Shown here: in pieces, positions 1 to 63,920 of the stretch | Layout of the letters: every line of letters starts with the position of its first letter | How positions within the stretch are numbered: the stretch's first letter is position 1 | Assembly (NCBI GenBank): GCA_013374855.1 | Contig: CP055308.1 | Span: 532,071-596,070 of the forward strand | Reading direction: 5' to 3' | Length of the DNA stretch: 64,000 nucleotides | DNA from: Candidatus Woesebacteria bacterium | GTDB taxonomy: Bacteria; Patescibacteriota; Microgenomatia; UBA8517 | The notes under the pieces: generated by a model | The model's database searches: none | Seen by the model: only the letters and a program-made list of their open reading frames with translations | What the model was told of the DNA's origin: nothing | Position numbers and translations under genes: made by a program

Positions 1-468
1 TTTGTCTTTTCTTTTGTTTTTTCGAGAATTATATCTTTCCGTTTGGGAAGATTTTTGTTTTTTGGGTTTATTTTTGTTTTTTTGGTTTACAATTTTTATC
101 TTTTTTCTATTTATTTTAGGGGAGAGTACCGGCGGTATAACCCTGTTTCTTTATCAGATGAGATTAAAGCTGTTGACTGGGTATATGAAGATGCTGGTGA
201 AGAAAAATTTAATGTGGATTTTTATGTTCCGCCTGTTGTTCCTTATTCTTATGAATATTTGTTTAAGTGGAGAGGTATGGAATTTTTTGGAAAGATTCCT
301 TCAGTGGAAATGGTTGATTTGCTTTATACTATAAGTGAACCTGACAATTTGCATCCTGAACGTCTTGAAATTTGGAGGATAAGGCAGGATAAAATAGGAA
401 GAGTAGAAGAGAAAATAGAAATTGGTTCACTTTTGGTAGAAAGAAGATCTAGAATAACTGGTGAATGA
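1..468 (+). CDS. Partial CDS (5' end outside window). C-terminal part of a membrane-anchored protein: one TM segment, then a soluble domain
   Basis: The frame of ORF 43..468 stays open back to nt 1 with no stop. A hydrophobic helix (FLFFGFIFVFLVYNFYLF) is followed by a charged soluble region. The stop lies 4 nt before the next start. ORF 2..334 in another frame is F/L-rich low-complexity. Confidence 0.4.
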   Translation, partial: FVFSFVFSRIISFRLGRFLFFGFIFVFLVYNFYLFSIYFRGEYRRYNPVSLSDEIKAVDWVYEDAGEEKFNVDFYVPPVVPYSYEYLFKWRGMEFFGKIPSVEMVDLLYTISEPDNLHPERLEIWRIRQDKIGRVEEKIEIGSLLVERRSRITGE

Positions 469-3400
469 GAACTAAAGTTTTTTTGTATTTTTTGAAAAGA
501 AGGGTTAATGTTTTTGTTTTTTTTGTGTTTCTTTTTTTAACTTTGTGGTTAAGTCGTTATTTTCTGGAGGCAGAATCCTTTTATTCTCATGATTTGGATT
601 TTAATTTAATAAGGAGCCTTGAGGCATATCTTTCATTGAAAGAAGGTCATTTTCCGTTGCGTTGGGCAGGTGACCTTAATTATGGTTGTGGTGTTCCTGT
701 CTTTAATTTTTTCTATCCTCTTGTTTATTATTTAATGAGTTTTATTTTTGTTTTTCTGGGTGATTTCCTTTTGTCTTGGAAAATATTGGTGTTTATTAGT
801 CTTTTTATTGGTAGTTGGTTTTTCTTTCTTTGGATTAAAAACGAAACTAAAGATACTCTTGCTTCTTTTGGGGGAGCTTTGATTTATCTTCTTGCGCCAT
901 ATAGATTTTCTTTGGTTTTTGTAAGAGGCTCTGTTGAATTTTTAGCCTACGCACTTTTGCCAGTTATTTTTTTTCTTGCTTCAAAGATTTTGTTTGATAA
1001 GAATAAATGTTTGTTTAAAAGAGGCTTTTTGTTTTCTTTGTTTTTAGCATTTTACTTTTTATCTCACAATATTGTGGTTTTGATTACCTTTCCAATTTTG
1101 TTGTTGTACACTCTTTTAAAACTTTTTAGAGAGAGAAGTGGTAATCCTGTCTTTATATTTTTTGTCTTTACTCTTGGTTTTTTAATGTCTTCTTTTTTTC
1201 TAGTTCCAGCATTTTTGGAAAAGGCATATGTGAGGCTGTCTATTGACAATGTTGTAGTTGATTATAGGAATCATTTTCCTACTTTAGGGCAGCTTCTGCG
1301 CTCAAGATGGGGTTATCTTTATTCTCTACCTGGTACTGATGATGGCATGTCGTTTATGCTTGGTTATCCTCAATGGCTTGTCTTGTCTTTGTCTTTTTTC
1401 TTTGCGATCTATTACATCTTTAAGACGAAGGAAAGAGCTATTGTCTTTTTGAAAAAAAATTTTTGGTTATTTTTTTATCTTTTCCTTTCTTTGCTTTCTA
1501 TTTTTCTTATGCTTCCATTGTCCTCTTTTATTTGGAGAAACATTAATACTCTACAGCAAGTTCAGTTCCCTTGGAGGTTTTTGGGATTGACAGTTTTTTT
1601 AGTAGCCTCCTTGTTTTCTTACCTGTTGGTTTTTTTAAGGAGAAGTTTTAATAAGAGAGTTTTGTATATTACTTTTGTAATAATATTCTTTATCGGTCTT
1701 TTTGGAAATAGAAATCACTTAAGAGTTTTTCCTTCGAGTGTTAAAGATTATAAAACTTTCAAAGATAACCTTTTGCGCTATTCTACAACTTCTATGGCGA
1801 ATGAGATTTTGCCTTATGGTAATTTGGCTATGTGTAGTCCTGAAGAGCCTTTCTCAAGCGAAGGGGAAATATTGGATCTTAAAAGGGGTTTAACTTATGG
1901 ATCTTTTAAGGTTAGATTTGATGAGGTACCAAAAGAAAAAGTTTTATTTCATTTAGGCTATTTTCCGGGTGTATATGAATTTACCATAAATGGCAGAGAT
2001 GGCGTGCCCTATTCAGATTGCGAAGGAAGGGTCTGTATTTCTTCAAACGAATTTGCTCCTTTTAGTTTTGTATCTTGGAAAGTAGTTCAGACTCCTGTAC
2101 AGAGGTTTTTTAATTTAATAAGTCTTTTCTCTTTTTTTGTTTGGATTATTTTGATTTTTGGTCTTTACCAAAAGAGGCAATTTTGGATCTTTCTTCTTTT
2201 GATGTTTTTATTTTTTAGACTTTATGGTCTGGAGAAAAAAATGGTTTTTGGTTGGGATCAGGAAAGAGACGCTTTTGTTGTTTCTGAGATCTTGAAGGGA
2301 AAATTAACTTTGATTGGACCGCGTGTTGTTGGCCCCAGTGGTTTTTTCCTGCCACCTTACTTTTTCTATATTCTTTCCCCTTTTTATTTTTTGGGCAGAG
2401 GTAACCCTCAGGTTTCGCTTTATCTTTTCCTATTTTCTTATTGGATTTTGTTTTTTGTTGTAGCTTATAAATCTTTTCTTAAATCTATAGGTAGAAACGA
2501 ATCCTTATTGTTTGTTTTGGTGTGGTCAACTTTGCCCCTTGCAGTTGTGGTGGATAGAATAGCTTGGAATCCTATTTTTATTCCTTTGGTTTTTATTGTC
2601 TTGTTGTTTTTTCATTATAGATACTATTCTACTGGGAGTGTTTTTTGGTTTTTTGTTCTTAGTATTTCTTATTTTTTGGGGGTATCATTTCATATACAAG
2701 GTTTGTTTTATTTTCCATTTATACTGAATGCGTTTTTGTTTGGTGGTAATAAGGTTTTTTTGAAAAAGTTTTTTTTGTTTATTTTTTCTGCTTTTTTGGT
2801 TTTTTTACCTATTATTTTGTTTGATTTGCGGCACAATTTTCTTAATTTTTCTTTGATATTTGGTTTTGGGCAAAACTCTTTGGTCAGGGGTGGTTTGTCT
2901 GATGTGTGGTCTAATTTTGTATCATCTTTTGTTAGTTTGAGGATTGGAAAATTATCAGCTTTTGTTTTTTATTTATTTTTTCTTTTTCTAAATTTCCTTT
3001 TGTTAATTAGAGTAAGATTAGCCTATAAAAAAGAACTGCTTTACTCTTTATTTTTGATTTTGCTCTCTTTTCCTATTGTTTTTTATTTTTATGGTTTTCG
3101 CCCATCAGAGTATTATTTTAATTTTTTAATCCCTGTTTTTGTTTTAATTTTTTCTCTTGCGCCCTTTGTAATTAGGCCAAGATTTGCTAGATTGTTTTTA
3201 TCTTTGGTTTTAGTTGTTTTTATTTTGTGGAGTACTTTGTCAAACCTAAAAAGTGTTGCTTACTATGATGGTGAAAGCCTCTATTTTAAGAAGAGGGTGG
3301 TTGGTTTTATTAAAGATATCACAGAGAATAGAAAATATGATTTGTCAATTGATTCAAAAAGTGGCAAAGATGCTGGGTTTTATTATCTTTTAAGTTTTTA

Positions 3401-3527
3401 TGGCCTTGAGCATAACAGAAATAATACTTTTTCCTTGATAAGAATAGTGGAGCCACCAGACAGCAGTTGCTTTACACGCTTTGGGATCTATTCTGTTTGT
3501 TTTTTGCCTCAAGATTTTGGTTGGTAG
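465..3527 (+). CDS. Very large (1020 aa) polytopic membrane protein with two GT-C-like modules. The N-module belongs to the RWxxD...FNFFYP / YRFSLVFVRG / FQFPWRF paralog family (YfhO / PTPS-related-like). The C-module has a WDQERDAF (DE-type) motif as in ArnT/PMT-like enzymes
   Basis: One continuous ORF. Residues about 1-560 align motif-for-motif with ORFs 13626, 16124 and 17757, including the terminal beta-rich soluble domain plus TM anchor. Residues about 600-1020 form a second multi-TM block that begins GWDQERDAFVVSEILKGKL. Confidence 0.55.
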   Translation: MRTKVFLYFLKRRVNVFVFFVFLFLTLWLSRYFLEAESFYSHDLDFNLIRSLEAYLSLKEGHFPLRWAGDLNYGCGVPVFNFFYPLVYYLMSFIFVFLGDFLLSWKILVFISLFIGSWFFFLWIKNETKDTLASFGGALIYLLAPYRFSLVFVRGSVEFLAYALLPVIFFLASKILFDKNKCLFKRGFLFSLFLAFYFLSHNIVVLITFPILLLYTLLKLFRERSGNPVFIFFVFTLGFLMSSFFLVPAFLEKAYVRLSIDNVVVDYRNHFPTLGQLLRSRWGYLYSLPGTDDGMSFMLGYPQWLVLSLSFFFAIYYIFKTKERAIVFLKKNFWLFFYLFLSLLSIFLMLPLSSFIWRNINTLQQVQFPWRFLGLTVFLVASLFSYLLVFLRRSFNKRVLYITFVIIFFIGLFGNRNHLRVFPSSVKDYKTFKDNLLRYSTTSMANEILPYGNLAMCSPEEPFSSEGEILDLKRGLTYGSFKVRFDEVPKEKVLFHLGYFPGVYEFTINGRDGVPYSDCEGRVCISSNEFAPFSFVSWKVVQTPVQRFFNLISLFSFFVWIILIFGLYQKRQFWIFLLLMFLFFRLYGLEKKMVFGWDQERDAFVVSEILKGKLTLIGPRVVGPSGFFLPPYFFYILSPFYFLGRGNPQVSLYLFLFSYWILFFVVAYKSFLKSIGRNESLLFVLVWSTLPLAVVVDRIAWNPIFIPLVFIVLLFFHYRYYSTGSVFWFFVLSISYFLGVSFHIQGLFYFPFILNAFLFGGNKVFLKKFFLFIFSAFLVFLPIILFDLRHNFLNFSLIFGFGQNSLVRGGLSDVWSNFVSSFVSLRIGKLSAFVFYLFFLFLNFLLLIRVRLAYKKELLYSLFLILLSFPIVFYFYGFRPSEYYFNFLIPVFVLIFSLAPFVIRPRFARLFLSLVLVVFILWSTLSNLKSVAYYDGESLYFKKRVVGFIKDITENRKYDLSIDSKSGKDAGFYYLLSFYGLEHNRNNTFSLIRIVEPPDSSCFTRFGIYSVCFLPQDFGW

Positions 3528-3563: not shown

Positions 3564-4340
3564 ATGAAGAAGGGTGAAATCTTTTTGTCTGTTGTTATTC
3601 CTTGCTATAACGAGGCAGAAAACATTAATCGCGGAGTTTTGGAGGGAGTTTATAACTATTTTAAAGACAAGGATTATTCTTGGGAAGTTTTGGTCTCAGA
3701 TGATGGTAGCAGTGATGAAAGCGTCTCTCTAATAGAAGATAGAATTAGATCTTTGCCTAATTTTTACTTAATAAAGAATTCTCATGGTGGCAAACCGAGT
3801 GCTCTCTTGGGTGGAGTTAAAGTGGCAAGAGGGAAATATGTGCTTTTTACTGATATGGATCAGTCTACTCCAATCTCAGAACTTGATAAACTTATTCCTC
3901 ATACGAAAGATAATGTGGAGGCTGTTATAGGTTCACGGGGTGTAATAAGGAAGGATTTCCCTCTTTACAGAAAAATTGGGGCTGTTGTTTTTATGATGGT
4001 AAGGAGAGTTTTGATTTTGCCGGAGTTGGTTGATACTCAATGTGGCTTTAAACTTTTTAGGTCAGACATCTTGAAGAAGGTCTTTCCCAAATTAGAGTTT
4101 TTTAAGAAAGAGGAAAATCGTGTTGGTTGGGTAGTTAGCTCATACGATGTTGAACTTTTGCACCTTGTAAAAAAAACAGGCGGAAGGATAGTTGAGATTC
4201 CTGTTTTGTGGAAAGATGAGGATAAAAGTAAAACTAAAGGCTCCTCTTTTAAAAGGTACTTCAAAGAATCAAAAGAGATGTTTTTCCAGATATTGAGGGT
4301 TAAGCTAAATGATTGGCGTGGTATGTATAAGGATTTATGA
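3564..4340 (+). CDS. GT2 polyprenol-phosphate glycosyltransferase (DPM1/GtrB/ArnC-like)
   Basis: LSVVIPCYNEAENI...VSDDGSSDES...TDMDQSTP is the classic GT2 DXD / DPM1 architecture. It is about 258 aa and has an AGGAAG 6 nt upstream. Confidence 0.75.
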   Translation: MKKGEIFLSVVIPCYNEAENINRGVLEGVYNYFKDKDYSWEVLVSDDGSSDESVSLIEDRIRSLPNFYLIKNSHGGKPSALLGGVKVARGKYVLFTDMDQSTPISELDKLIPHTKDNVEAVIGSRGVIRKDFPLYRKIGAVVFMMVRRVLILPELVDTQCGFKLFRSDILKKVFPKLEFFKKEENRVGWVVSSYDVELLHLVKKTGGRIVEIPVLWKDEDKSKTKGSSFKRYFKESKEMFFQILRVKLNDWRGMYKDL

Positions 4341-5857
4341 AACTTTTTTTGAGAAAGAATATTTTTTATTTTTTTGTCTTTTTGGTTTTAGTTTTTTCTT
4401 TTTTGATTCGTGTAGTCAAACTCTCTTATTGGCCTATTTTTGCCGATGAGGCAATTTACATTCGTTGGGCTCAGGTAATGAGGAGTGAAGTTAATCTTCG
4501 TTTTTTGCCCCTTTCCGATGGTAAACAACCTCTTTTTATGTGGCTTGTAATTCCTTTTCTTAAGATCTTTCAAGATCCCTTGTTTGCTGGTAGGCTTTTG
4601 TCGGTTATTTCTGGTACAGCTTCTGTATTGGTTGTTTTTTTAATTGCTCTTTTTCTATTTAAGGAAAAAAAGGTTGCTCTTTTTGCAAGCTTGATTGCTT
4701 CTATATTACCCTTTTTTGTTTTCTTTGATAGAAAAGCTTTGGTTGACAGCCTGCTTTTGTTTTTTGGTCTTTGTCTTTTCCTTTTTTCTTTTTTAGCTTT
4801 CTCTAGAAAAAGGTTTGATTTTGTTTTACTTGCTGGTTTTTCTTTAGGTGGGGCTCTTTTGACAAAATCGCCTGCTTTATTTTTTTCTTTGCTTTTACCT
4901 ACTTTTTTGCTTTTTTTTGATTTTAAGAAAAGTAAAAAACTTAGTTTTAGACAAGTTTTTTTGGCTTTATTTTATCTTTCTGTAATTTACGCAGTAGGTT
5001 ACCTTTTCTATAACATTCTTCGACTGGGACCAAATTTTCACCTTTTGGCTAGTCGCAATATGGATTATGTTTTTCCTTTTTTGCATGTTTTTCAAAATCC
5101 TCTTGACCCATTTCTATCCCATATTAAGGATATCTTTATTTGGTTTTTTTATTTTGGTATTTTATTTATACTACCTCTTTTTTTGCTAGGGTTTTGTTTT
5201 GGTCTTAAAAAGTATAGAAAGGAAGTACTAGTCTTGTTTTTTTGGTTTTTGTTTCCACTTTTAGTCCAGGCAGAATATGCTAGGGTTTTTACAGCTCGTT
5301 ATATTTTATTTACAATTCCTTTCTTTTTGATAATCTCATCTTTATCGTTGAGATTTGCAAATCGGTACAAATTTATCTTTTTTCCCTTCTTTGGATTATT
5401 TATTGTTTTTTCACTTTTCCAAAATTTCCGGTTTATTTTTAATCCAAATAAATCATTTCTGCCAAGAAATGAAAGATCTGGTTATCTTGAAGAGTGGTCT
5501 GCCGGAACTGGTATAAGAGAAGTGTCTGTATATTTGGTTGATTTTTATAGAAAAGAAAAAAGAGAGATTCTTGTTGGTACGGAAGGTTATTTTGGAACGC
5601 TTCCTGATGGATTACAGGTTTATCTAAATGATTATCCTCAGATTAAAGTGGCTGGAATGGGTATTAATTTTAATAATGTTCCTGAAGGATTGGTTACTTC
5701 AGCCGGTAGTGGCACACCGACATTTTTTGTAGTGAATAGTTCAAGGGCAAAGATAGAAGATTTGAAAAACCTAGAGCTTTTAGCAGAGTATCCGAAAGCA
5801 AAGAAAAAAGATGGTTCTTTTGAGAAACTTCTTTTTTATAGAGTTAAAAGTAACTAG
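4337..5857 (+). CDS. GT-C family membrane glycosyltransferase (ArnT/PMT, GT39/83-like) with a C-terminal soluble domain
   Basis: WPIFADEAIYIRWAQ carries the DE motif in the first extracytoplasmic loop. It has about 10 predicted TM segments and an ATGA overlap with the upstream GT2. Confidence 0.6.
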   Translation: MKLFLRKNIFYFFVFLVLVFSFLIRVVKLSYWPIFADEAIYIRWAQVMRSEVNLRFLPLSDGKQPLFMWLVIPFLKIFQDPLFAGRLLSVISGTASVLVVFLIALFLFKEKKVALFASLIASILPFFVFFDRKALVDSLLLFFGLCLFLFSFLAFSRKRFDFVLLAGFSLGGALLTKSPALFFSLLLPTFLLFFDFKKSKKLSFRQVFLALFYLSVIYAVGYLFYNILRLGPNFHLLASRNMDYVFPFLHVFQNPLDPFLSHIKDIFIWFFYFGILFILPLFLLGFCFGLKKYRKEVLVLFFWFLFPLLVQAEYARVFTARYILFTIPFFLIISSLSLRFANRYKFIFFPFFGLFIVFSLFQNFRFIFNPNKSFLPRNERSGYLEEWSAGTGIREVSVYLVDFYRKEKREILVGTEGYFGTLPDGLQVYLNDYPQIKVAGMGINFNNVPEGLVTSAGSGTPTFFVVNSSRAKIEDLKNLELLAEYPKAKKKDGSFEKLLFYRVKSN

Positions 5858-5882: not shown

Positions 5883-7379
5883 GTGTTAGGCTTTTCTAAA
5901 AAAAATATTTCAGAGGTTGAGGAAATTGATTTTCAGATTGTGAAGAAGAGAGCGGTTTCAGGTGTGGTTGTTCTGACAGGTAGAACTTTTTTCTTGAGCC
6001 TTCTTTCCTTTTTTGCTACAGCATTGCTTACTGTTTTTCTTGAGCCTTCGCAGTTTGGAGTTTTTTGGATAGTCTCTGCTGTAGTTAGTTTTCTTTCTTA
6101 TTTTAGCGATATAGGTTTGGCGGCAGCTTTGATTCAAAAAAAAGAAAAATTAAACCAAAATGATTTAAATACAACCTTTGTAGTTCAACAAGTCTTGGTT
6201 ATTTTTATTTTATTTTTGCTGTTTCTTTTTTCTCCAGCATTGGTGCGTTTTTATAGTCTTGATTTTGAGGGTAAGATTCTTCTTTATGCGCTTGGTGTAA
6301 GCCTTTTTATGTCGTCGCTTAAAACCATTCCTTCAGTTTTGCTTGAAAGAAACTTGGAGTTTGGAAAGTTGATAATACCACAAATATTGGAGAATTTAAC
6401 TTATAACGTTTTGGCAGTGTTTCTTGCTTGGCAGGGATTTGGTACAAGAAGCTTCACTTACAGTGTTTTGGCAAGAGGATTTGTGGGACTTATAGCCATC
6501 TATGTTATTTATCCTTGGAGACCAACTTTTTCTTTTTCTAAAGAGTCTTTGCGTTCTCTTCTTAAGTTTGGAGTCCCCTATCAACTTAACACGTTCCTTG
6601 CCACGATCAAAGATGATGGGCTAACTGCCTTTTTGGGTGGAATATTGGGTGGTTATGGTGTTGGACTTTTGGGTTGGGCGCAAAAATGGGGACAAGCACC
6701 TCTGAGATTTTTTATGGATCAGGTGATAAAAGTAACTTTTCCTGCTTTTTCTAGGATTCAAGATAACAAAGATGAATTAAGATCAGCCTTGGAGAGATCT
6801 TTGTTTTTTATTTCATTTTTGGTTTTTCCTTCTTTGTTTGGACTACTGGCTTTGGCGCCTCTCTTAGTTTACCTTATACCAAAGTATATTAAATGGGAAC
6901 CAGCGCTTATTCCGCTCTATTTGATTGGTTTTAATACAATTTTTGCCTCTATCTCTACGCAACTGACGAATTTTCTAAATGCAACAGGTAGAATAAAAAC
7001 GACTTTTAAACTTATGATTATGTGGACAACTCTTTCTTGGCTTTTTATACCTTTTCTTTCGTATAAGTTTGGAGTGATTGGGGCTGCCTTTGGGTATGCT
7101 TTGGTTGGCGTAAGTTCTTTAGTTGTATTCTTTGTTGTTTTTAGGTTTTTGCGGTTTTCTTTTTTAAGATCTTTTTTAAAGCCTTTGGTGGCTTCTTTGA
7201 TTATGTTTGTAACACTTTATTTTTTGAGAATAAAGTTAACAATTTCTTTTTTTTCTTTTTGGGTTCTTCTTGGTGTGGGTGGGATAGTCTATTTTTTGTT
7301 GATTTACCTTATGGTGGGCAATTTGCTTATAGAAGATGTTAAGAAAAGCACAAAGTTACTTTTTGGAAAAAAGAACTGA
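5883..7379 (+). CDS. Wzx-like oligosaccharide flippase / polysaccharide biosynthesis protein (MOP superfamily)
   Basis: About 12-14 TM helices spread over 498 aa. The N-terminal charged region, the helix layout and the G-rich loop (GGILGGYGVGLLGW) are typical of the Polysacc_synt family. It has a GTG start. Confidence 0.55.
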   Translation: MLGFSKKNISEVEEIDFQIVKKRAVSGVVVLTGRTFFLSLLSFFATALLTVFLEPSQFGVFWIVSAVVSFLSYFSDIGLAAALIQKKEKLNQNDLNTTFVVQQVLVIFILFLLFLFSPALVRFYSLDFEGKILLYALGVSLFMSSLKTIPSVLLERNLEFGKLIIPQILENLTYNVLAVFLAWQGFGTRSFTYSVLARGFVGLIAIYVIYPWRPTFSFSKESLRSLLKFGVPYQLNTFLATIKDDGLTAFLGGILGGYGVGLLGWAQKWGQAPLRFFMDQVIKVTFPAFSRIQDNKDELRSALERSLFFISFLVFPSLFGLLALAPLLVYLIPKYIKWEPALIPLYLIGFNTIFASISTQLTNFLNATGRIKTTFKLMIMWTTLSWLFIPFLSYKFGVIGAAFGYALVGVSSLVVFFVVFRFLRFSFLRSFLKPLVASLIMFVTLYFLRIKLTISFFSFWVLLGVGGIVYFLLIYLMVGNLLIEDVKKSTKLLFGKKN

Positions 7380-56765: not shown

Positions 56766-57197
56766 TTATTTTTTGTCTTTATCTCTAAGAGCGATCTCTC
56801 TGGTGAGAGTTGTTATTTGTCTTTCTAATACTTCAATAATGGAAAGAATTCTGAAGAGGATCATAAAAACCACAACAAAACCAAAGAATATAAGAGTGTT
56901 CAAATTACTACCCATACCTAGTTTTCTTGAGACAAAATAAGCAAAATCTGGAAAAAGAGAGATTGTAAGAATTACACCCCAGATTATAATGGTTGATGCG
57001 GTTTTGAAAAAACTTTGAGATGTTTCTTTTTTAACAAAGCGAGAAACACCCCTTCCTATCATATAAGAAGAAAGTAATATTAACGCCCAGCGTATAACAG
57101 AAATTCCAAAAATCATAAGCTTATTATAGCAAAATAGAATAAACAGCTTTGGTTTATTGTAATTGAGAAGATATTTTGTTAATCTAAAAGTTGTCAA
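56766..57197 (-). CDS. Small membrane protein, DUF2304-like (usually partnered with DPM1-like GT2)
   Basis: It has 3-4 TM helices and a charged C-terminus (LERQITTLTREIALRDKDKK). The true start may be the internal MIFGIS. Confidence 0.4.
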   Translation of the reverse strand: MTTFRLTKYLLNYNKPKLFILFCYNKLMIFGISVIRWALILLSSYMIGRGVSRFVKKETSQSFFKTASTIIIWGVILTISLFPDFAYFVSRKLGMGSNLNTLIFFGFVVVFMILFRILSIIEVLERQITTLTREIALRDKDKK

Positions 57198-57258
57198 AGA
57201 TCAAACTAGATATTTATCTGTTAAATTTGCTTGTAGACATAAAAGCTGGCTCTTTTTT

Positions 57259-57618
57259 ATGAAATACTATTCTGATAAAAGTTCGATAATAATTTCTTAT
57301 ACAGATTCTGATTGGGATAAATTGCTAGAGAGCTCTAATGTTTCAATTTTAGAAAACGAGGAGTCAGTAAAAAAGGTATTTTCCTTGGCTTTTGAGTGGT
57401 TTATTAGTGGCAAGTATTCTATTGATGATCTTTCTGCTGTTTGCATGAAGTTGTTTGACATATTACAGGTTATTGGAAGCAACAAATATCCAGAACTTTT
57501 TGATGCTCTAGATGATGGGTCTGAACTTTCATTTTACATAAGAAAACCTGATCTTTTGCCCCAATTTACTAAGCTTTTGGAAGAATTTTTTGATATCTAT
57601 GAAGGATTAAATAAATAA
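57259..57618 (+). CDS. Hypothetical protein, paralog of 47508..47933
   Basis: See the paralog entry. I set the start at the internal ATG (MKYYSDK). Confidence 0.45.
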   Translation: MKYYSDKSSIIISYTDSDWDKLLESSNVSILENEESVKKVFSLAFEWFISGKYSIDDLSAVCMKLFDILQVIGSNKYPELFDALDDGSELSFYIRKPDLLPQFTKLLEEFFDIYEGLNK

Positions 57619-57713
57619 TCTATAGTTTCCTTCAATTCTTGCCGGTAAATTTGTTTCTAATTTAATTTAGCTAATATTTAAAGACATTAAAGTTGATTTT
57701 TACAGATACTAAG

Positions 57714-58391
57714 TTACTGGCTTAATATTATTCGTACCATTGTTTTAATCCCATTAACCAAGTTTTGTTTTTGTTTTTTTGATTTTGAATATTCTGTATA
57801 GAAGACATCTATTGGTATTTCTGTATATTTTAGTTTGTTTCTTGCGATTTCTCTTATTACTTCACTATCAAATTCATAACGATCCATTTTTAAGTCAAGA
57901 AGTTTTAAAGCCTTTTTACTGTATGCGCGAAAACCAGATTGGGAATCTGAGACCATTATCCCATAAACCAAAAAAATAAGAACGTTGGCAAACTTATTAG
58001 CAAGTTTGTTGAAAGTTGGTATTTTGTTTTTCTTCTTCTTGAATCTTGTTCCCATCACTACATCAAAACCTTCTTCTATTTTTTTGACCATTTTTTTGAT
58101 TTCTTTTGGGTTATTTTGTCCGTCGCCGTCTATTGTTACTACAATATCGGCGTCTTTTGTTTTTGCAAACTCAAGACCTGTTTTGACAGCTGCTCCTTTA
58201 CCTCGATTTATAACGTGCCTTAGTACAAAAACTTTTTCTTCTTTTGCTTTCTGTAGCGTATTATCTGTTGACCCGTCATCAACTAAAATAATATTTTTCC
58301 AGCCCTCATTTTTAATGTCTTTTATTACCTTTTTGATTACCTTTTCTTCGTTATAGCAGGGGATAACAATAAACACCTTTTTGCTTGCCAT
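57714..58391 (-). CDS. GT2 polyprenol-phosphate glycosyltransferase (DPM1/GtrB-like)
   Basis: VFIVIPCYNEEKVIKKVIKDI..ILVDDGSTDNT...VTIDGDGQN...SGFRAY. Confidence 0.75.
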   Translation of the reverse strand: MASKKVFIVIPCYNEEKVIKKVIKDIKNEGWKNIILVDDGSTDNTLQKAKEEKVFVLRHVINRGKGAAVKTGLEFAKTKDADIVVTIDGDGQNNPKEIKKMVKKIEEGFDVVMGTRFKKKKNKIPTFNKLANKFANVLIFLVYGIMVSDSQSGFRAYSKKALKLLDLKMDRYEFDSEVIREIARNKLKYTEIPIDVFYTEYSKSKKQKQNLVNGIKTMVRIILSQ

Positions 58392-58445
58392 AGCAGTATT
58401 TTATCAGATTTATGGCCTTTTTGTGGTATAATTGAGGATACTAAG

Positions 58446-58739
58446 ATGTCTGTTTCTCTTTTAGCTTTCAAAAAACTCTTTTGGGATGTTGATTTTTCTA
58501 AAATTGATCCTGTTAAAAATAAGCGGTTTGTTATTGAAAGAGTGCTTGAATATGGCGACCTTTCCCATTTTAAAAAGCTAAAAGAGGTTTATTCTCTTGA
58601 TGACATAAAGGAAGTTCTTAAAAACTCAAGAACAATATCGTTTAAAACTGCCAACTTTTATGCTTTAATATTGCATGTTCCCAGAAAGGATATTTTATGT
58701 TTGAGAAAGCCATTGATACAAAAACAAGACAGGTTTTAA
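58446..58739 (+). CDS. Small hypothetical protein, putative partner (antitoxin) of the downstream nucleotidyltransferase
   Basis: It is 97 aa and overlaps the downstream gene by 43 nt. It has no recognizable motif. Confidence 0.3.
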   Translation: MSVSLLAFKKLFWDVDFSKIDPVKNKRFVIERVLEYGDLSHFKKLKEVYSLDDIKEVLKNSRTISFKTANFYALILHVPRKDILCLRKPLIQKQDRF

Positions 58740-59311
58740 GAAAAATAAAAGAAACTGGGGTGTTGGATAATTTTTATCTTGCCGGAGGTACTGCTCTTTC
58801 TTTAATTTTGGGACACAGAAAGTCTATTGACCTTGATTTCTTTTCTTCCAAATTTCCAAAGATTGAGATATTGCTTGCCAAGTTAAAGCCTCTTGTGCCT
58901 GAGATTATTAATCAAGATAAAGGGACGCTTGATTTGTATATAGATGGTGTGAAGGTGAGTTTTTTGAGATATGATTATCCTTTAATTGGAGATTTATTAG
59001 AGTTTGATGGGGTGAGGATTGCTTCGATTTTTGATATTGCTTGTATGAAGCTTTCTGCAATATCCTCTCGTGGATCAAAAAAGGATTTTGTTGACCTTTA
59101 TTTTATTCTTAAAGATAAAGGGTTTGGTAGACTTCTTTCTCTTTTTCAGAAAAAATTTAAAGGCGTTGACTATCAGATGACCCACATCTTAAAGTCTCTT
59201 GTTTATTTTAAGGATGCGGAACAAGACCCAGATCCTGTTTTTTTGGTTCCTTTTGACTGGAAGAAAGCAAAGGAAAGATTAAAAAAGGAAGTTCTTTCTT
59301 ATGTTTTATAG
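58697..59311 (+). CDS. Nucleotidyltransferase, AbiEii/AbiGii-like (DUF1814-type), short form
   Basis: FYLAGGTALSLILGHRKSIDLDFFS is a GGTAL...R.S.DLDF motif. Confidence 0.55.
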   Translation: MFEKAIDTKTRQVLRKIKETGVLDNFYLAGGTALSLILGHRKSIDLDFFSSKFPKIEILLAKLKPLVPEIINQDKGTLDLYIDGVKVSFLRYDYPLIGDLLEFDGVRIASIFDIACMKLSAISSRGSKKDFVDLYFILKDKGFGRLLSLFQKKFKGVDYQMTHILKSLVYFKDAEQDPDPVFLVPFDWKKAKERLKKEVLSYVL

Positions 59312-59315
59312 AAAG

Positions 59316-61025
59316 CTAAAGAGGCAAGTTTATCCAATTTAAACAAAAGTCTTCATGTTTTAATTTTTCTATTTCGTAAAGTCTGACTGTGTGGAATCTT
59401 CTGTAGGTTTCTTTACTGTATTCTTTGCAGATTTGACTGTTGTATATTTTGAAGATGGTTCCAGAATCCTTTTGGTCTGTTATATTGAAAGATTGTTTTT
59501 CTTTAATTTCGCACCCTGTATCCTGATTAATAGCCAATATTTGATCAGTGTTAATTTTTGTGGGGCAGATGTTGGTTATTTCTATATTGCCAAGATTGTA
59601 TTTAACAAGCCCTTCGGTGTATGGCAGTTCTTGTTTTTCTAAGATTTGTTTCTGAGTATTATTTTCAGACATTGTTACAAACCTAAGATAAGTTGATCTT
59701 GGGCGGTTGGTTACAACAGTAACTTTTTGAGTATCTTCTGCGTAGGAAAGATATTTGAAAAGAACACGCTCTCCCAGCCAATAGTTTTCTTGGTTTGTAA
59801 TTGGAAATCTTGCAAAGTAAAAATTGAGGAAATTGGCAAAGATTATAGCGTAGATGATAATTATCAGATAGTTTATTACCTTTTTATTAAGACTTATTAT
59901 TTCGTTTATTCCAACTGAGATGATTATTAAAAATAAGGGCAAAATTAAAAATGATCTGTTGATAACAGATGTTTCGACACGGCTTATTGCAGTTGGAAAG
60001 GGGGCAACAAGAATAAGTGAGGCAAGAAGGAAAAACTTTGCTTTATCCTTTTTATAGATAGCAACAAGACCAAGAATCAGAAAGATAATATCTATTATGT
60101 AAAACAATCCGTGGTCACCGAAACGGTATGTTGTCCTTTTGTCACCGCTTATTGTCAGGGTTTCAGGAGAAAATGCATCTAAATAATTTTTAATAAAAAT
60201 TTTGACTGTTTCTGTTGCTTTGTTGACAAAAAGATTATTTAATGGAAATTGAATTTCCTGCCTTCTTTTATTGTCTACTATTTGACTTATATATTGATTA
60301 TCAAAAATAAGATCAGTTTTTCTTGAATTCAAAATTGACCCTTCTGTGTTTGTACTTATTAACCAAAATATTGCCACTATTGCAAGCGATGAAAATATAA
60401 TAGCCAACTGGTATTTTTTGGTTTGTTTGTTTTGGTATAGATTATATATGACAAGAATTAAAACAATGGGTAGAAATATAAATTTTGCGGCGTGATACGA
60501 AAAAAAACCAAGTACTAGAAACAAAGATGAGAGGGTTGTATTTTTCTTATTTGACTTGCTTAGTAGTAAGTAAATTCCAAGCATATAAAAGAGAAAAGCA
60601 AAAGGTGCTTCAACAGCTGTTCTTGAATAGTAAAAGTTCCAAGGGTTAATTAAGAAAAGAAATGAACTGATTAGTGCTATTCTTTTTGAAAATAATTTTT
60701 TGGTAATCAGGTAAAGAGGAATCAACGTTACCAGGTTTATTATAACAAAAACTATTCTTATATTTGCTTGATTTAGTGGAATTACACTAAAGATTGGAGA
60801 AAGCAAAAGAGGTGGTATTGCGCTTATTATTCCGTCAGTTTGAGTCTTAAATAAAGATAGGGGAAATGAATATCCGGAAACATCTTTGCCAACCAGTGCA
60901 TAAGTTTTTGCGCTTATTGCATATTCAATCTCATCGTTTGAGAGACCTACAGGAAACTTATCAACAAAGACAAACCTTGTTGTCAAAAGAAAAATTAAAG
61001 CTAGAATTATGATTGGTTTGCGCAC
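59316..61025 (-). CDS. GT-C family membrane glycosyltransferase (PMT_2/ArnT-like) with a C-terminal soluble domain
   Basis: GLSNDEIEYAISAKTYALVGKDVSGYSFPL carries the DE motif. It has about 12 TM segments. Confidence 0.5.
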   Translation of the reverse strand: MRKPIIILALIFLLTTRFVFVDKFPVGLSNDEIEYAISAKTYALVGKDVSGYSFPLSLFKTQTDGIISAIPPLLLSPIFSVIPLNQANIRIVFVIINLVTLIPLYLITKKLFSKRIALISSFLFLINPWNFYYSRTAVEAPFAFLFYMLGIYLLLSKSNKKNTTLSSLFLVLGFFSYHAAKFIFLPIVLILVIYNLYQNKQTKKYQLAIIFSSLAIVAIFWLISTNTEGSILNSRKTDLIFDNQYISQIVDNKRRQEIQFPLNNLFVNKATETVKIFIKNYLDAFSPETLTISGDKRTTYRFGDHGLFYIIDIIFLILGLVAIYKKDKAKFFLLASLILVAPFPTAISRVETSVINRSFLILPLFLIIISVGINEIISLNKKVINYLIIIIYAIIFANFLNFYFARFPITNQENYWLGERVLFKYLSYAEDTQKVTVVTNRPRSTYLRFVTMSENNTQKQILEKQELPYTEGLVKYNLGNIEITNICPTKINTDQILAINQDTGCEIKEKQSFNITDQKDSGTIFKIYNSQICKEYSKETYRRFHTVRLYEIEKLKHEDFCLNWINLPL

Positions 61026-61075: not shown

Positions 61076-62164
61076 ATGCGTATAGGAATAGATATTTCAC
61101 AGATTGTTTATAGAACTGGTGTTTCTACATACACTGAAAATTTAGTTAAGTCTTTGTTTGAGATAGACAAAGAAAATCAATATGTTTTGTTTGGAGGCTC
61201 TTTAAGGAGAAGGGAAGGTCTTTTGACTTTTGCCAGAGAACTTGATTATAAATATAAGGCTCGTGTTCAAAGCCGTCTTTTTCGTTTCCCACCGACTCTG
61301 CTTGATCTTTTATGGAATAGGCTTCATATAATTCCTGTTGAGAGATTTATTGGTAGAGTTAATGTATTTCATTCTTCTGATTGGGTACAGCCTCCAAGTT
61401 ATTCTTTTCGTGTTACGACAATTCATGATCTTTCCCCTTTAAGGTTTCCCAAACTTACTCACCCCAAAATAGTTGAGGTTACTCAAAGAAGATTAAAGTG
61501 GGTAAAAAAGGAAGTTGATAGGGTTATAGTTCCAAGCCATGCGACTTATGAGGATTTGCTTATTCTTGGTTTTAAGAAGTCAAAAATAAGAATTATTCCG
61601 GAAGCAGCTGATGATTATTTTAAGCCAGCTTCTCTGAAAGATCAGGCAATTGTGAAGAAGAAATACAAGCTGGATGATTTTATTTTAGCAGTAGGTACAA
61701 ATAAAAGGAAGAATTTAGATAGAATTATTTCGGCTTTTGACTTGGCAAGGGCTGGTAAAGGTTTTAAGTTGGTTGTTGTGGGCGAGAAAACAGAAGGCTT
61801 GGAAGAAAGGAGAGGAATTGTTTACACAGGACATATCTCAAAGGAAGATTTGAGGAGGCTTTACAGTGCTGCGCTTTGTTTGGTTTACCCCTCTTTGTAT
61901 GAAGGATTTGGCTTGCCAATCTTGGAGGCTTTTGCTTGTAATTGTCCTGTGGTTACTTCAAACTTATCAAGTTTGCCTGAAGTGGCAGGGAAAGCTGCTA
62001 TTATGGTTGATCCTTTTAGTGTTAATTCAATAGCGGAGGGGATTAGTAAAGCTATAAAAAGAAGAAAAGGTTTAATCAGAGCGGGCAAGAAGAGGCTTTC
62101 TTATTTTTCTTGGGAAAGGACGGCTTTATTAACGCTTAGTGTCTATCGGGAGAGTTTATTATGA
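61076..62164 (+). CDS. GT4 glycosyltransferase
   Basis: VYPSLYEGFGLPILEAFACNCPVVTSNLSSLPEV. Confidence 0.7.
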   Translation: MRIGIDISQIVYRTGVSTYTENLVKSLFEIDKENQYVLFGGSLRRREGLLTFARELDYKYKARVQSRLFRFPPTLLDLLWNRLHIIPVERFIGRVNVFHSSDWVQPPSYSFRVTTIHDLSPLRFPKLTHPKIVEVTQRRLKWVKKEVDRVIVPSHATYEDLLILGFKKSKIRIIPEAADDYFKPASLKDQAIVKKKYKLDDFILAVGTNKRKNLDRIISAFDLARAGKGFKLVVVGEKTEGLEERRGIVYTGHISKEDLRRLYSAALCLVYPSLYEGFGLPILEAFACNCPVVTSNLSSLPEVAGKAAIMVDPFSVNSIAEGISKAIKRRKGLIRAGKKRLSYFSWERTALLTLSVYRESLL

Positions 62165-63318
62165 AAAGAGTGAGAGTAATAGGGATTGATGGAAATGAAG
62201 CAAATGTTAAAAGTAGGGTGGGAGTTAATGTTTATGCCTTTAATTTGCTTTGGAATATATATAAACTACAGGATAAAGTTTCTACAAACTATAGGTTTAT
62301 AGTTTATCTTTCGTCTCTACCCCTTGATGATATGCCCACAGAGAAACCTGGCTTTTGGGAATACAAAATCCTTGAGGGTGGTGGTCTTTGGATACTAAAG
62401 AAACTCACTCCTTATTTGTTGTTTAACAAGGACGAACTTGATCTTTTCTTTACTCCTAGTCATTATACACCCCCGTTGTCAAGAGTGCCGGTGGTTTGTT
62501 CAATTATGGATTTAGGATATTTGGAATTTTCGGAACAATTTGAAAAAAAAGTGTTTTGGCAGTTGAAGTATTGGAGTGCTACCTCCATTTTTGTATCAAA
62601 AGGTATCATTGCTATATCAGAAGAGACAGCTCGTGATATTTTACGACATTACCCTTTTGCTTCTGGAAAAATTGAAGTTACTTATCCTGGTTATGATAAA
62701 GAGAAGTTTTATTTTCCATACCCGCAAAATCTTGTGCGACAAGTGAAAAGAAAGTATAAAATTGGTAAAAACTATATCCTCTATCTTGGGACATTAAAAC
62801 CAAGTAAGAATATTGAGGGAATAATTGATGCCTTTAACATAGTAAAAAATGAATCTACTGATTTTCAACTTGTGATAGCTGGCAAGAAAGGTTGGCTTTT
62901 TGATGGGATTTTCCAAAAAGTGAAAAGTTTGGGGCTTGAAAAACAGGTTGTTTTTACTGATTTTGTGAGTGAGGAAGACAAACCTGCTTTAATGGCTGGG
63001 GCTTCTGTTTTTGTTTCTCCGTCTTTTTGGGAGGGATTTGGTTTAATTGCGATTGAGTCAATGGCTGTAGGAACACCGGTTGTAGTCTCAGATAGAGGAA
63101 GCTTCCCTGAAGTTGTGAACGGGGCTGGAATTTTGGTTGATCCTGAAGATTATTGTGATATTGCAAATGGAATTAAAAAAGTAATCACAATGGAAATTAA
63201 AGAGTATAATAGGTTGGTGAAGGAGGGATTAAAAAGGGCTAGTCTTTTTTCTTGGGAAAAAACAGCTTGGAAAACACTTTTGTTTTTTGAGAAGATTATA
63301 GAATATAAAAAAAGATGA
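62161..63318 (+). CDS. GT4 glycosyltransferase
   Basis: VFVSPSFWEGFGLIAIESMAVGTPVVVSDRGSFPEV. It has an ATGA overlap with the upstream gene. Confidence 0.7.
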   Translation: MKRVRVIGIDGNEANVKSRVGVNVYAFNLLWNIYKLQDKVSTNYRFIVYLSSLPLDDMPTEKPGFWEYKILEGGGLWILKKLTPYLLFNKDELDLFFTPSHYTPPLSRVPVVCSIMDLGYLEFSEQFEKKVFWQLKYWSATSIFVSKGIIAISEETARDILRHYPFASGKIEVTYPGYDKEKFYFPYPQNLVRQVKRKYKIGKNYILYLGTLKPSKNIEGIIDAFNIVKNESTDFQLVIAGKKGWLFDGIFQKVKSLGLEKQVVFTDFVSEEDKPALMAGASVFVSPSFWEGFGLIAIESMAVGTPVVVSDRGSFPEVVNGAGILVDPEDYCDIANGIKKVITMEIKEYNRLVKEGLKRASLFSWEKTAWKTLLFFEKIIEYKKR

Positions 63319-63920
63319 GAAGTTTTTTTAAAGACAAGCACGGAAAGCAATTAAGCTGGGAGGAAGCTTTAAAGAAAATAAAAAATCGTTTCTTTAATTA
63401 TCTCCTTGATTTTGAACTTATGCTTCTTCGCTGGGTGGGGCATATTCCAAGTCATATAGTGCGTAAGTTTTTTTACAGACTAAGTGGTGTGAAAATTGGT
63501 AAGGGATCGACTATTCACATGTGGGCAAGTTTTTTTGATCCGAGAAATATTGTAATTGGGGAAGATACAATAATTGGGGATCATGCATTTTTAGATGGTA
63601 GGGAAAAGATAGAAATAGGAAATCACACCGATATTGCATCTTCTGTTATGATTTACAACAGTGAACACGATTTGTCAGATGAAGAATTTAAAGCAATAAA
63701 TGCGCCAGTTAGGATAGGTGATTATTGTTTTATTGGCCCGCGAGCGATAATTTTGCCTGGGGTAAACATAGGAAAGGGAGCAGTTGTGGCTGCGGGCGCA
63801 GTTGTGACAAAGGATGTGGCTGATTTTCAGATAGTTGGAGGAGTGCCTGCAAAACCCATAGGGGAGAGGAAAAATAGAAATCCCAATTATAAGCTTGGTC
63901 GAGCTAGACTTTTTCAATAA
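63315..63920 (+). CDS. Left-handed beta-helix (hexapeptide-repeat) sugar O-acetyltransferase (WbbJ/MAT-like)
   Basis: IGNHTDIASSVMIY...IGDYCFIGPRAIILPGVNIGKGAVVAAGAVVTKDVADFQIVGGVPAKPIGER. Confidence 0.75.
   Translation: MRSFFKDKHGKQLSWEEALKKIKNRFFNYLLDFELMLLRWVGHIPSHIVRKFFYRLSGVKIGKGSTIHMWASFFDPRNIVIGEDTIIGDHAFLDGREKIEIGNHTDIASSVMIYNSEHDLSDEEFKAINAPVRIGDYCFIGPRAIILPGVNIGKGAVVAAGAVVTKDVADFQIVGGVPAKPIGERKNRNPNYKLGRARLFQ

Follow-up and report, generated by a model that had tools for sequence, protein, structure and literature searches.

What would a bacterium with a genome of only ~0.8 Mb (802,554 bp) make with a nearly unbroken block of glycosylation genes that fills ~8% of it? The question is raised by a 64-kb stretch of contig CP055308.1 (positions 532,071 to 596,070, hereafter the window) from a Candidatus Woesebacteria bacterium, a member of the Microgenomates within the candidate phyla radiation (CPR; Patescibacteria). 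Named homologues of two window proteins, g16088 and g34534, likewise come from Microgenomates, Daviesbacteria, Woesebacteria and Patescibacteria. CPR bacteria are ultrasmall and mostly uncultured, many are thought to be attached to hosts, and their surface make-up, attachment, and phage or host specificity are largely unknown. The answer put forward here, with a probability of about 0.7, is that the island synthesizes envelope glycoconjugates on both faces of the membrane by way of a polyprenol-phosphate carrier, and that it consists of a conserved core and a variable part.

The window is AT-rich (GC 0.28-0.37), has positive GC skew throughout and a coding density of 95%, and carries nearly all its genes tightly packed on the + strand. 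Glycosylation accounts for 45 of its 54 open reading frames (ORFs) and 87% of its bases; the others are an IS200-like gene, a coiled-coil protein, an XRE-type helix-turn-helix (HTH) protein, an AbiEi/AbiEii pair, a second AbiEii, and two or three small unknowns, and neither tRNA genes nor Rfam families were detected in scans of the window. ORFs of at least 140 amino acids (aa) were scanned against Pfam, with extra scans against NCBIfam, and ORF starts are the start codons of the longest ORFs. Comparisons cover the window and 10 related loci, each with up to 10 kb of flank, which were found by scanning a genome collection with g16088 and whose ORFs were mapped onto the window proteins. Genes are named by their first window coordinate, with m for the minus strand (Table 1).

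Glycosyltransferases on two sides of a membrane

Leloir glycosyltransferases (GTs) number 19 in Pfam and NCBIfam scans, comprising 12 GT2 (PF00535) and seven GT4 (PF00534) genes or domains. A previous reading of this DNA, made from the letters alone and here called the sequence-only reading, had arrived at the same 19 and had listed four polyprenol-phosphate-sugar synthases besides; if the two figures were meant additively they are ~3-4 too high, as the synthase-like GT2s are already counted inside the 19. Setting aside three enzymes of the DPM1/ArnC/PpgS/AglJ type leaves 16 ordinary Leloir GT2 and GT4 enzymes.

A hydropathy scan found 21 polytopic proteins other than the Wzx flippases, with 5-19 hydrophobic segments per candidate. 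Between 465 and 63,920 there are 20 supported modules of the glycosyltransferase C superfamily (GT-C) in 19 genes (all GT-C entries of Table 1 in that range except g23952m) and one probable module (g23952m), with the partial gene at 1-468 additional, in agreement with the ~20 GT-C-like proteins counted from the letters. Thirteen proteins match GT-C clan families in Pfam directly. PMT_2 or PMT is matched by g4337, g25564, g27213 (weakly), g38736 (weakly), g45381, g52036, g55280 and g59316m; the assignments of g27213 and g38736 are sub-threshold, and that of g23952m is by motif. In all-against-all BLAST the N-terminal half of g465, the C-terminal part of g13626, g16088 and g17757 form one paralogue family (E 1e-33 to 1e-103). 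What had been taken for a novel paralogue family corresponds to Pfam PF10131 (PTPS_related), which is listed under GT-C clan CL0111 (PMC7801869). A second paralogous set comprises g25564, g27213 and g59316m (BLAST, 1e-22 to 1e-60).

An acidic motif just after the first transmembrane (TM) segment is the catalytic-loop hallmark of GT-C enzymes. Such a motif, of DE, DD or HD type, directly follows TM1 in nearly all candidates, g37610 and g38736 being unclear, and the acidic residue is invariant in both aligned families, as D57 in the g7336 family and D43 in PTPS_related. The three marks of the superfamily, a polytopic domain, a post-TM1 acidic motif, and similarity to established GT-C families, were all found.

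Six polytopic proteins (g7336, g19434, g20734, g23952m, g34534, and g37610) lack a direct Pfam match, and three are placed by their relatives. The g19434 protein is not significantly similar to g20734 in BLAST, and its L003 orthologue (E 1.5e-43) exceeds the cutoffs of both GT87 (29 bits against 25) and PIG-M (24 bits against 23.4). The g20734 protein is similar to P0123, a protein with a pair of GT87 (PF09594) domains, both in a search of 5.8 billion sequences (E 1.5e-5) and in a pairwise comparison across the WGQxD region (E 8e-10). The 56 homologues of g34534 include three with PMT_2 or PMT matches, JGI-named as PMT- or ArnT-like, and all named ones are from Patescibacteria or Woesebacteria. 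Searches of PDB sequences with phmmer (g7336, g19434, g20734, g23952m, and g48116) and with A1 and A3 profiles returned nothing meaningful, and the families searched are tied to solved GT-C enzymes at the level of fold only. Both AlphaFold2 models (g7336 and g16088) are multi-helix bundles with ALG12, ALG9, ALG3 and ALG6 among the structural neighbours of each, and the beta-sandwich of the g16088 model is predicted to resemble the carbohydrate-binding modules (CBMs) of polysaccharide-acting GT-C enzymes.

Several assignments call for narrower names. The g4337 and g25564 proteins carry the PMT N-terminal domain PF02366 (48.3 and 41.7 bits, cutoff 22.7) and had no Pfam match to PMT_4TMC or MIR at E≤0.01; they do not classify as GT39 PMT proper and, judged by their domains, are better described as PMT_2/ArnT-like. 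The MptB match of g22818m to NF038066 is marginal, its 40.9 bits barely exceeding the cutoff of 40, for a protein of 336 aa against a model of 553 positions. The family that classifies g48116, PF19528 (formerly DUF6056), is named GT_STM0557_N in a newer Pfam release, STM0557 being a Salmonella GtrC; hhalign gave g48116 a probability of 7% against the A2 alignment.

Three GT2 enzymes resemble polyprenol-phosphate-sugar synthases. The strongest, g57714m, scores 175 bits against the PpgS model NF058614, aligned over positions 2-218 of 226, a family-level match since the equivalog cutoff is 370, and also matches AglJ, ArnC, PgfS and haloarchaeal dolichol-phosphate (Dol-P)-hexose transferase in NCBIfam. 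The g22071 protein matches TIGR04182 (AglJ, 3.6e-22), NF058614 (PpgS, 2.8e-18) and NF041391 (2.6e-15), each near full length, and g3564 matches more weakly, with ArnC best in NCBIfam (52 bits) and PpgS aligned over 4-208 of 226. No fourth candidate was found in NCBIfam, and the four DPM1/GtrB-like GT2s previously proposed are thus reduced to three. Because all scores lie below equivalog cutoffs, the sugars made by these enzymes cannot be named.

The g57714m gene belongs to a GacL/GacI/GacJ-like trio at 56766-61025 that also comprises the GT-C gene g59316m and a DUF2304 gene. DUF2304 proteins GacJ and Rv3632 bind and stimulate their GT2 partners GacI and PpgS (bioRxiv 10.1101/180810). The module has no dedicated flippase, the nearest Wzx gene (49899) lying 5.6 kb off, and a lone AbiEii gene sits between g59316m and g57714m.

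Gene fusions join these enzyme classes. In related locus L002, a single 726-aa ORF (L002:3141-5321) fuses a DPM1/PpgS-like GT2 to a PMT_2 GT-C in "Rosetta-stone" fashion. In g13626, a GT2 domain (PF00535 3.3e-24, residues 8-182) that resembles ordinary rhamnosyltransferase-like GT2s in BLAST precedes a PTPS_related module (weak match at 339-509; 2.8e-103 against g16088), and L003 encodes the two halves as separate genes. In g465, with ~19 TM segments, the N-terminal half matches g16088 and g17757 (BLAST 1e-43) and has a weak direct PTPS_related match, and the C-terminal half (561-1020) matches ~460-520-aa PMT_2 proteins of related loci (1e-46 to 1e-8). Taken together, the L002 GT2/GT-C, g13626 GT2/GT-C and g465 GT-C/GT-C fusions point to functional coupling between the enzyme classes. 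The three synthase-like GT2s and the L002 fusion are circumstantial, sequence-based grounds for supposing that the GT-C modules use polyprenol-phosphate-linked sugar donors.

The most unusual GT-C family is that of g7336. No Pfam match was obtained at E≤10, STT3 (PF02516) included, and there was no NCBIfam match and no PDB sequence or profile match. An exhaustive HMMER search gave 1116 cluster representatives, P0121 and P0122 among them, the named ones being "hypothetical protein" entries of Daviesbacteria and Parcubacteria. An AlphaFold model built from a 45-sequence alignment (pLDDT 93.4, pTM 0.93) had STT3, AglB and PglB chains and DPY19 as its first 17 Foldseek matches (E 4e-9 to 7e-5), followed lower down by AftA (9e-5), ArnT (1.6e-4) and Pmt (0.14). 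The predicted C-terminal globular domain is AglB-like, and the model as a whole has the oligosaccharyltransferase (OST)-type arrangement of a TM domain followed by a C-terminal globular domain, at ~10-12% structure-based identity to OSTs. In the related loci the g7336 orthologue always lies directly downstream of the core Wzx gene. This constant adjacency and a modelled fold nearest STT3, AglB and PglB make g7336 the leading candidate for an enzyme that transfers an oligosaccharide en bloc to the final acceptor.

Roughly half of the g7336 family is 1000-1640 aa in length, with an extra N-terminal domain of ~450-600 aa that has no Pfam match (for example P0121, P0122, P0126, P0139, P0179; L002:15933-19442, L005:8389-11847). 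This domain is probably extracytoplasmic and might bind acceptors or process glycans.

A conserved core and a variable part

A core cluster is shared by Woesebacteria-like and other Microgenomates loci, with E-values typically from 1e-90 to 1e-190. In the window it occupies positions 1-22,814 as ~16 co-directional, tightly packed genes. The shared GT-C content consists of a PMT_2-type enzyme (1-2 copies), a g4337-type PMT_2 enzyme, three tandem PTPS_related enzymes and often a GT87-like enzyme; with these go a DPM1-like GT2, a small GT2, a Wzx gene followed by the g7336 orthologue, and a GT2/GT2/GT2/GT4 run. Gene order is locally rearranged among lineages, with the Wzx and g7336 pair and the PTPS_related triplet constant. 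Orthologues of g4337 (1e-99 to 1e-149) occur in every locus long enough to hold them, and those of g3564 occur in L008 and L010 (1e-109 to 1e-112). The partial ORF at 1-468 matches residues ~393-499 of ~500-aa proteins of L008, L009 and L011 in tblastn (E 1e-28 to 1e-34), a family to which the C-terminal half of g465 belongs as well, and these relatives score above the PMT_2 cutoff.

Judged by its conserved gene set and local order, the core probably produces a housekeeping envelope glycan common to the whole lineage. Related loci have 6-10 GT-C genes in each ~21 kb, and high GT-C density is therefore a trait of the lineage. A GT-C count far above the usual, as first suggested for this island, holds against most bacteria but does not set the island apart from its relatives. 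In the relatives, the upstream limit of the core is marked by one to three ~330-aa genes in tandem (L009:963-4966, L010:945-1949, L011:2881-3885). These were considered as phosphoglycosyltransferase (PGT) genes and rejected, as they encode DHH/DHHA1 phosphoesterases.

Genes at 22.8-64 kb had no orthologue in the 10 related loci; their only matches were near-identical copies in other samples that contain this organism (L001 and L012-L014). This 41 kb is interrupted by the IS200-like gene and AbiE toxin-antitoxin genes and includes self-contained modules, namely a Wzx, GT2, GT-C, GT4, GT2, GT-C block at 49.9-56.7 kb and the trio at 56.7-61 kb. Its own Wzx block, the Gac-like trio and the mobile and toxin-antitoxin insertions suggest that it is probably a surface-diversity region that provides strain-variable surface decoration. 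A single pathway logic for nearly every gene, as had been proposed, therefore fits the classes of enzyme present but not their distribution, which is that of a ~22-kb core and a 41-kb variable part.

The GDP-mannose 4,6-dehydratase (gmd), FkbM-type methyltransferase, acetyltransferase and two Wzx-like flippases named in the sequence-only reading all have matching Pfam families. Neither a GDP-fucose synthase nor an Rmd-type reductase was recognised beside gmd, the sole nearby reductase candidate being the classical short-chain dehydrogenase/reductase (SDR) gene at 30437-31183. Just one sizeable stretch falls outside glycosylation: it separates the gmd block from the GT2 block that follows, and its coiled-coil and XRE-type HTH genes could be a regulator or a mobile-element remnant. 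A ~28-nt palindrome, ACCTTTAARGGAGSCTCCYTTAAAGGT, occurs five times (29640-29674, 30149-30193, 30370-30414, 36784-36830, and 52563-52609). Three copies flank or fall in the 5′ extension of the Y1 transposase ORF, one lies just upstream of the GT2 gene g36849, and one is within the GT-C gene g52036; it looks like the subterminal hairpins of IS200/IS605 elements or a REP/RAYT-type system.

Table 1. Features of the 64-kb window by position, with the support for each assignment (core, 1-22,814; variable part, 22,818-63,920)
Position	Strand	Feature	Support
1-468	+	PMT_2-type GT-C, 3′ end (~155 aa), beginning beyond the window start	Frame 1 open from base 1
465-3527	+	g465, 1020 aa, two fused GT-C modules: N-terminal PTPS_related, C-terminal PMT_2-type	
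3564-4340	+	GT2, ArnC/DPM1-like, candidate polyprenol-phosphate-sugar synthase	PF00535 1.2e-24
4337-5857	+	GT-C, PMT_2/PMT type	PF13231 57 bits, PF02366 48.3 bits; ADE after TM1
5883-7379	+	Wzx/MOP flippase, core	PF13440 4.7e-55, PF01943 4.5e-23
7336-9039	+	g7336, unannotated OST-like GT-C family, candidate en-bloc transferase	
9050-9973	+	GT2 (Leloir), core	PF00535 3.3e-21; orthologues 1e-94 to 1e-110
9981-10901	+	GT2 (Leloir, rhamnosyltransferase-like), core	PF00535 5e-15, TIGR01556 3.3e-18; orthologues ~1e-111 to 1e-119
10892-11665	+	GT2 (Leloir), core	PF00535 2.6e-17; L009 orthologue 6e-91
11644-12702	+	GT4 (Leloir), core	PF00534 1.6e-21; L009 orthologue 3e-80
12705-13622	+	GT2 (Leloir)	PF00535 2.6e-22; L003 orthologue 1e-98
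13626-16124	+	g13626, 832 aa, Leloir GT2 fused to PTPS_related GT-C	
16088-17785	+	g16088, PTPS_related GT-C with C-terminal beta-sandwich	Strong PF10131 match
17757-19433	+	g17757, third tandem PTPS_related GT-C paralogue	BLAST g16088 1.4e-55, g13626 4.5e-60; SDD after TM1
19434-20729	+	GT-C, GT87/PIG-M-like via orthologue	10 TM segments; HPD after TM1
20734-22074	+	GT-C, GT87-like	Similarity to P0123
22071-22814	+	GT2, AglJ/PpgS/Dol-P-hexose-transferase-like polyprenol-phosphate-sugar synthase; end of core	
22818-23828	-	GT-C, MptA/MptB family (GT87-like)	NF038066 MptB 40.9 bits, TIGR03459 4e-11, precomputed PF26314 MptA_B_family
23952-25463	-	Probable GT-C, motifs only	8 TM; FDE and DHPPLGGL motifs, resembling PMT loop 1
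25564-27216	+	GT-C, PMT/PMT_2	PF13231 44.5 bits, PF02366 41.7 bits; WDE after TM1
27213-28772	+	GT-C, tandem paralogue of g25564	BLAST 2.6e-60; PMT_2 23.6 bits, sub-threshold
28792-29652	+	GT2 (Leloir)	PF00535 1.8e-19
29664-30362	-	IS200-like Y1 transposase, flanked by palindromes	PF01797 1.4e-9
30437-31183	+	SDR, sugar modification candidate	PF00106 1.2e-39
31180-32226	+	GT4 (Leloir)	PF00534 3.8e-27
32233-33522	+	GT-C, PIG-V-like	PF04188 29.5 bits (cutoff 22.4); FDGVHY motif
33456-34529	+	GDP-mannose 4,6-dehydratase (gmd)	PF16363 2.7e-114, 382 bits
34534-35670	+	Short (~360 aa) PMT_2-like GT-C of CPR genomes	Homologues; FDE and QHPPLLKYL motifs
35664-36098	+	Coiled-coil protein, 144 aa	
36360-36647	-	XRE-type HTH gene, 95 aa	
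36849-37619	+	GT2 (Leloir)	PF00535 3.3e-31
37610-38725	+	g37610, unclassified membrane protein	5-6 TM plus C-terminal soluble domain
38736-40085	+	GT-C, weak PMT_2	PF13231 25.0 bits (cutoff 26.1); 8 TM
40138-41355	+	GT4 (Leloir)	PF00534 2.9e-30
41371-42501	+	GT4 (Leloir)	PF00534 2.6e-38
42503-43642	+	FkbM-type methyltransferase	PF05050 3.3e-22
43874-45369	+	AbiEi antitoxin and AbiEii toxin, complete pair inserted in island	NF047376 5e-8; PF08843 3.4e-21
45381-46940	+	GT-C, PMT_2	PF13231 29.5 bits
48116-49417	+	GT-C, GtrC-type	PF19528 1.2e-27, full length; VDD after TM1
49899-51176	+	Second Wzx/MOP flippase	PF01943 2.7e-20
51187-52026	+	GT2 (Leloir)	PF00535 4.6e-12
52036-53388	+	GT-C, PMT_2	PF13231 27.4 bits
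53352-54452	+	GT4 (Leloir)	PF00534 1.9e-28
54424-55293	+	GT2 (Leloir)	PF00535 1.9e-36
55280-56653	+	GT-C, PMT_2	PF13231 36.3 bits; LDE and FHPPLYYLL motifs
56766-57197	-	DUF2304 small membrane protein (GacJ/Rv3632 family), partner of adjacent GT2	PF10066 5.1e-17, 62.5 bits (cutoff 25.5)
57714-58391	-	GT2, PpgS/GacI/AglJ-like polyprenol-phosphate-sugar synthase	NF058614 1.6e-51, TIGR04182 2.8e-39
58697-59311	+	Lone/truncated AbiEii, 204 aa, inside three-component module	PF08843 1.4e-17
59316-61025	-	GT-C, GtrII/PMT_2 type	PF14264 (Glucos_trans_II) 38.7 bits (cutoff 30), PF13231 33.8 bits; NDE after TM1
61076-62164	+	GT4 (Leloir)	PF00534 4.2e-26
62161-63318	+	GT4 (Leloir)	PF00534 7.3e-38
63315-63920	+	Hexapeptide-repeat acyltransferase	PF00132 1.4e-17

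Proposed pathway and alternative readings

If the island synthesizes envelope glycoconjugates on both membrane faces, Leloir GTs would assemble lipid-linked oligosaccharides at the cytoplasmic face, with deoxyhexose (gmd), methyl and acetyl modifications added, and the three DPM1-like GT2s would load polyprenol phosphate with single sugars. MOP/Wzx flippases would carry the lipid-linked species to the outer face, where GT-C enzymes would extend, branch and attach glycans and g7336 would move a flipped oligosaccharide en bloc onto the final acceptor. Experimental precedents exist in GacI/J/K/L (bioRxiv 10.1101/180810), in Gtr and other three-component systems (PMC11127046), and in Haloferax AglJ/G/I/E, AglB, AglD, AglR and AglS (PMC3871713). 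The gene for the undetected PGT may lie in another part of the genome, or an AglJ-type GT2 may initiate directly on polyprenol monophosphate, as in Haloferax (PMC3871713).

Several points weigh against this reading. The PGT families (Bac_transf, MraY/WecA, and Glycos_transf_4), Wzy, Wzy_C ligase and LCP had no Pfam match among the window ORFs, and PGT, Wzy, Wzy_C ligase and LCP ligase were likewise not found in the 10-kb flanks of the relatives, so the pathway lacks an anchor at its start and its end. The sequence-only reading was right that an initiating enzyme, a polymerase and a ligase could not be seen in the window; the gap it left at the transfer step is softened by the OST-like g7336. 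That protein, however, has no STT3 Pfam match and is not a GT66 member by sequence, and a regular-expression search found WWDYG in 0 of 45 family members and in no window protein. Wzx-type proteins can flip polyprenol-phosphate monosaccharides, as documented for GacK (bioRxiv 10.1101/180810) and AglR (PMC3871713), and the core Wzx and g7336 therefore need not form an en-bloc system. Two membrane proteins are left without a family: g23952m had no family or profile match in Pfam, NCBIfam or PDB sequences and is a probable GT-C by its motifs (hhalign probability 40% against the A3 alignment and 0.3% against A2), and g37610 had no Pfam or NCBIfam match and no GT-C loop motif, and stays unclassified. 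The "variable" label is drawn from absence in 10 loci with flanks of ≤10 kb. Beyond family and fold assignment, paralogy, synteny and fusions, the steps of the pathway are what we infer from these.

The acceptor may be protein, polysaccharide or lipid, which sequence does not distinguish, and the readings differ on this point. The island may serve mainly polysaccharide or lipid acceptors, a proposal to be put tentatively and at somewhat worse than even odds, in which the core would build a glycopolymer anchored in the wall or membrane, its backbone made in the cytoplasm, and many three-component systems (GT2, flippase and GT-C) would add side chains outside, as in streptococcal group A carbohydrate (GAC)/Rgp, teichoic-acid glycosylation or Gtr modification of O-antigen. 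The GacL/GacI/GacJ-like trio, the GtrII- and GtrC-type GT-Cs, the DPM1-like GT2/GT-C fusion of L002 and the CBM-like domain of g16088 all suit such decoration, and Wzx-type proteins are documented as polyprenol-phosphate-sugar flippases; the window nevertheless showed neither an ABC transporter nor a Wzy, LCP ligase or PGT to serve a backbone polymer, and a pure side-chain model leaves the OST-like g7336 unexplained.

That the acceptors are mainly proteins (S-layer, pilins, and secreted proteins), with PMT-type GT-Cs O-glycosylating Ser/Thr and g7336 acting as a protein OST, is possible and on the unlikely side. The PMT and PMT_2 matches fit this, as does a g7336 fold nearest OSTs and DPY19, which are protein-modifying GT-Cs, and CPR cells are reported to have envelopes of Gram-positive-like type and abundant pili (PMC6744442). 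PMT_2, however, also occurs in ArnT and Gtr, which modify lipid A and polysaccharides, and Pfam scans found neither MIR nor PMT_4TMC on any PMT-like protein. In addition, g7336 lacks WWDYG, the beta-sandwich of g16088 is like the CBMs of polysaccharide-acting GT-Cs (cf. PMC11127046), and no window gene was recognised as encoding an acceptor protein.

A bolder and rather improbable proposal makes the 22-kb core a bacterial counterpart of the archaeal and eukaryotic lipid-linked-oligosaccharide (LLO) pathway. An AglJ/DPM1-like GT2 would start the glycan on polyprenol monophosphate, which would explain why no PGT was found; five or six Leloir GTs would extend it and Wzx would flip it outward; the PTPS_related triplet and the GT87-like GT-Cs would add sugars from polyprenol-phosphate donors outside, in the manner of ALG3/9/12 and AglS; and g7336 would pass the product en bloc to its acceptor, whether surface proteins or something else, by a WWDYG-independent recognition. 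If true, Microgenomates would carry a lineage-wide two-stage glycosylation system like that of the endoplasmic reticulum (ER), with an unrecognised OST-like branch.

It is less probable still that all ~45 genes build one giant lipoglycan or wall polysaccharide akin to lipomannan/lipoarabinomannan (LM/LAM) or arabinogalactan, with GT-Cs both elongating and transferring. Nearly all the genes are co-directional and tightly packed, an MptB-family GT-C is present along with many extracytoplasmic GT-Cs and polyprenol-phosphate-sugar synthases, and GT-C enzymes that both polymerise and transfer, TfpW for example, have been proposed before. Conservation in relatives, however, is limited to the first 22 kb, there are two separate Wzx genes and self-contained modules at 49.9-56.7 and 56.7-61 kb, and the array is broken by the IS200-like gene, the HTH gene and two AbiE loci. 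No window ORF matched Arabinose_trans (Emb/Aft), Arabino_trans_N, UbiA or DprE, and no genes of the decaprenyl-phosphate-arabinose (DPA) pathway were found, which leaves the LM/LAM and arabinogalactan analogy first drawn for this island as a conceptual one. Finally, that the polytopic proteins are transporters or permeases misread as transferases, a view to which the six without direct Pfam matches might lend themselves, is effectively refuted by the family classification, which does not make most of them transporters or permeases.

Known systems and the place of the island among them

With ~45 glycosylation genes on ~8% of the genome, surface glycans appear to be a central investment of these organisms. 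The ~16-gene syntenic core offers a concrete, testable locus for a lineage-wide Microgenomates envelope glycan, and it holds three tandem PTPS_related GT-Cs and an OST-like family of more than 1000 sequence clusters labelled "hypothetical"; the variable 41 kb suggests serotype-like diversification. Méheust et al. noted Microgenomates-enriched hypothetical membrane families, with no glycosylation reading in the passages searched (PMC6744442). The unannotated GT-C families of the window would widen CAZy and Pfam coverage and could re-interpret some of those Microgenomates-enriched families (PMC6744442).

Among known systems, the eukaryotic ER LLO pathway (ALG1/2/11, RFT1, DPM1/ALG5, ALG3/9/12/6/8/10, and STT3) shows the same division of labour, a likeness that is purely architectural, with no orthology shown. 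In that pathway cytoplasmic Leloir steps are followed by a flip, luminal GT-C steps from Dol-P-sugars, and an STT3-type transfer. Mycobacterial and corynebacterial LM/LAM and arabinogalactan machineries (MptA/B/C, PimE, Emb, Aft, and Ppm1) offer an analogy in their many GT-Cs and polyprenol-phosphate donors, and the window has an MptA/B-family protein (g22818m) and two GT87-like proteins (g19434 and g20734); unlike them, it has no Emb/Aft, DPA pathway or mycolate context, and PMT_2 and PTPS_related enzymes dominate. As in Wzx/Wzy loci for O-antigen and capsule, Wzx genes lie amid GT2, GT4, gmd, and methyl and acetyl transfer genes in a variable, mobile-element-laced region, but the window yielded neither a PGT nor a Wzy, a chain-length regulator or a ligase, and GT-Cs replace them numerically. 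The STT3/AglB/PglB (GT66) enzymes are approached by g7336 in its predicted fold, its AglB-like C-terminal domain and its position beside a Wzx gene and a Leloir GT run, but not in WWDYG or in sequence. In parallel, the AglJ-like GT2s and PMT_2-type GT-Cs recall AglJ, AglD, AglR and AglS of the Haloferax Agl pathway.

Along with the Agl and ALG/OST pathways, one of the closest mechanistic precedents is the three-component system, represented by GtrA/B/C, S. pyogenes GacI-J-K-L, M. tuberculosis PpgS-Rv3632-Rv3779, and CsbB/YfhO-type systems. The window has a contiguous GT-C, PpgS/GacI-like GT2 and DUF2304 set (g59316m, g57714m, and 56766-57197), GtrII- and GtrC-type GT-Cs, and two further DPM1-like GT2s. 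Unlike these systems, it has no match to a GtrA or SMR flippase anywhere, and its trio is split by an AbiEii gene; and where a three-component locus has one GT-C and a polymer made elsewhere, the window has ~21 GT-C modules and 16 Leloir GTs. A literature search that covered subscription journals thinly found no description of the GT-C expansion, the core cluster or the OST-like family in CPR. The building blocks are all of known kinds, and what appears to be new here, prior description being possible, is the packing of ~21 GT-C modules into 64 kb of a genome of 0.8 Mb, the conserved Microgenomates core operon, and the OST-like g7336 family.

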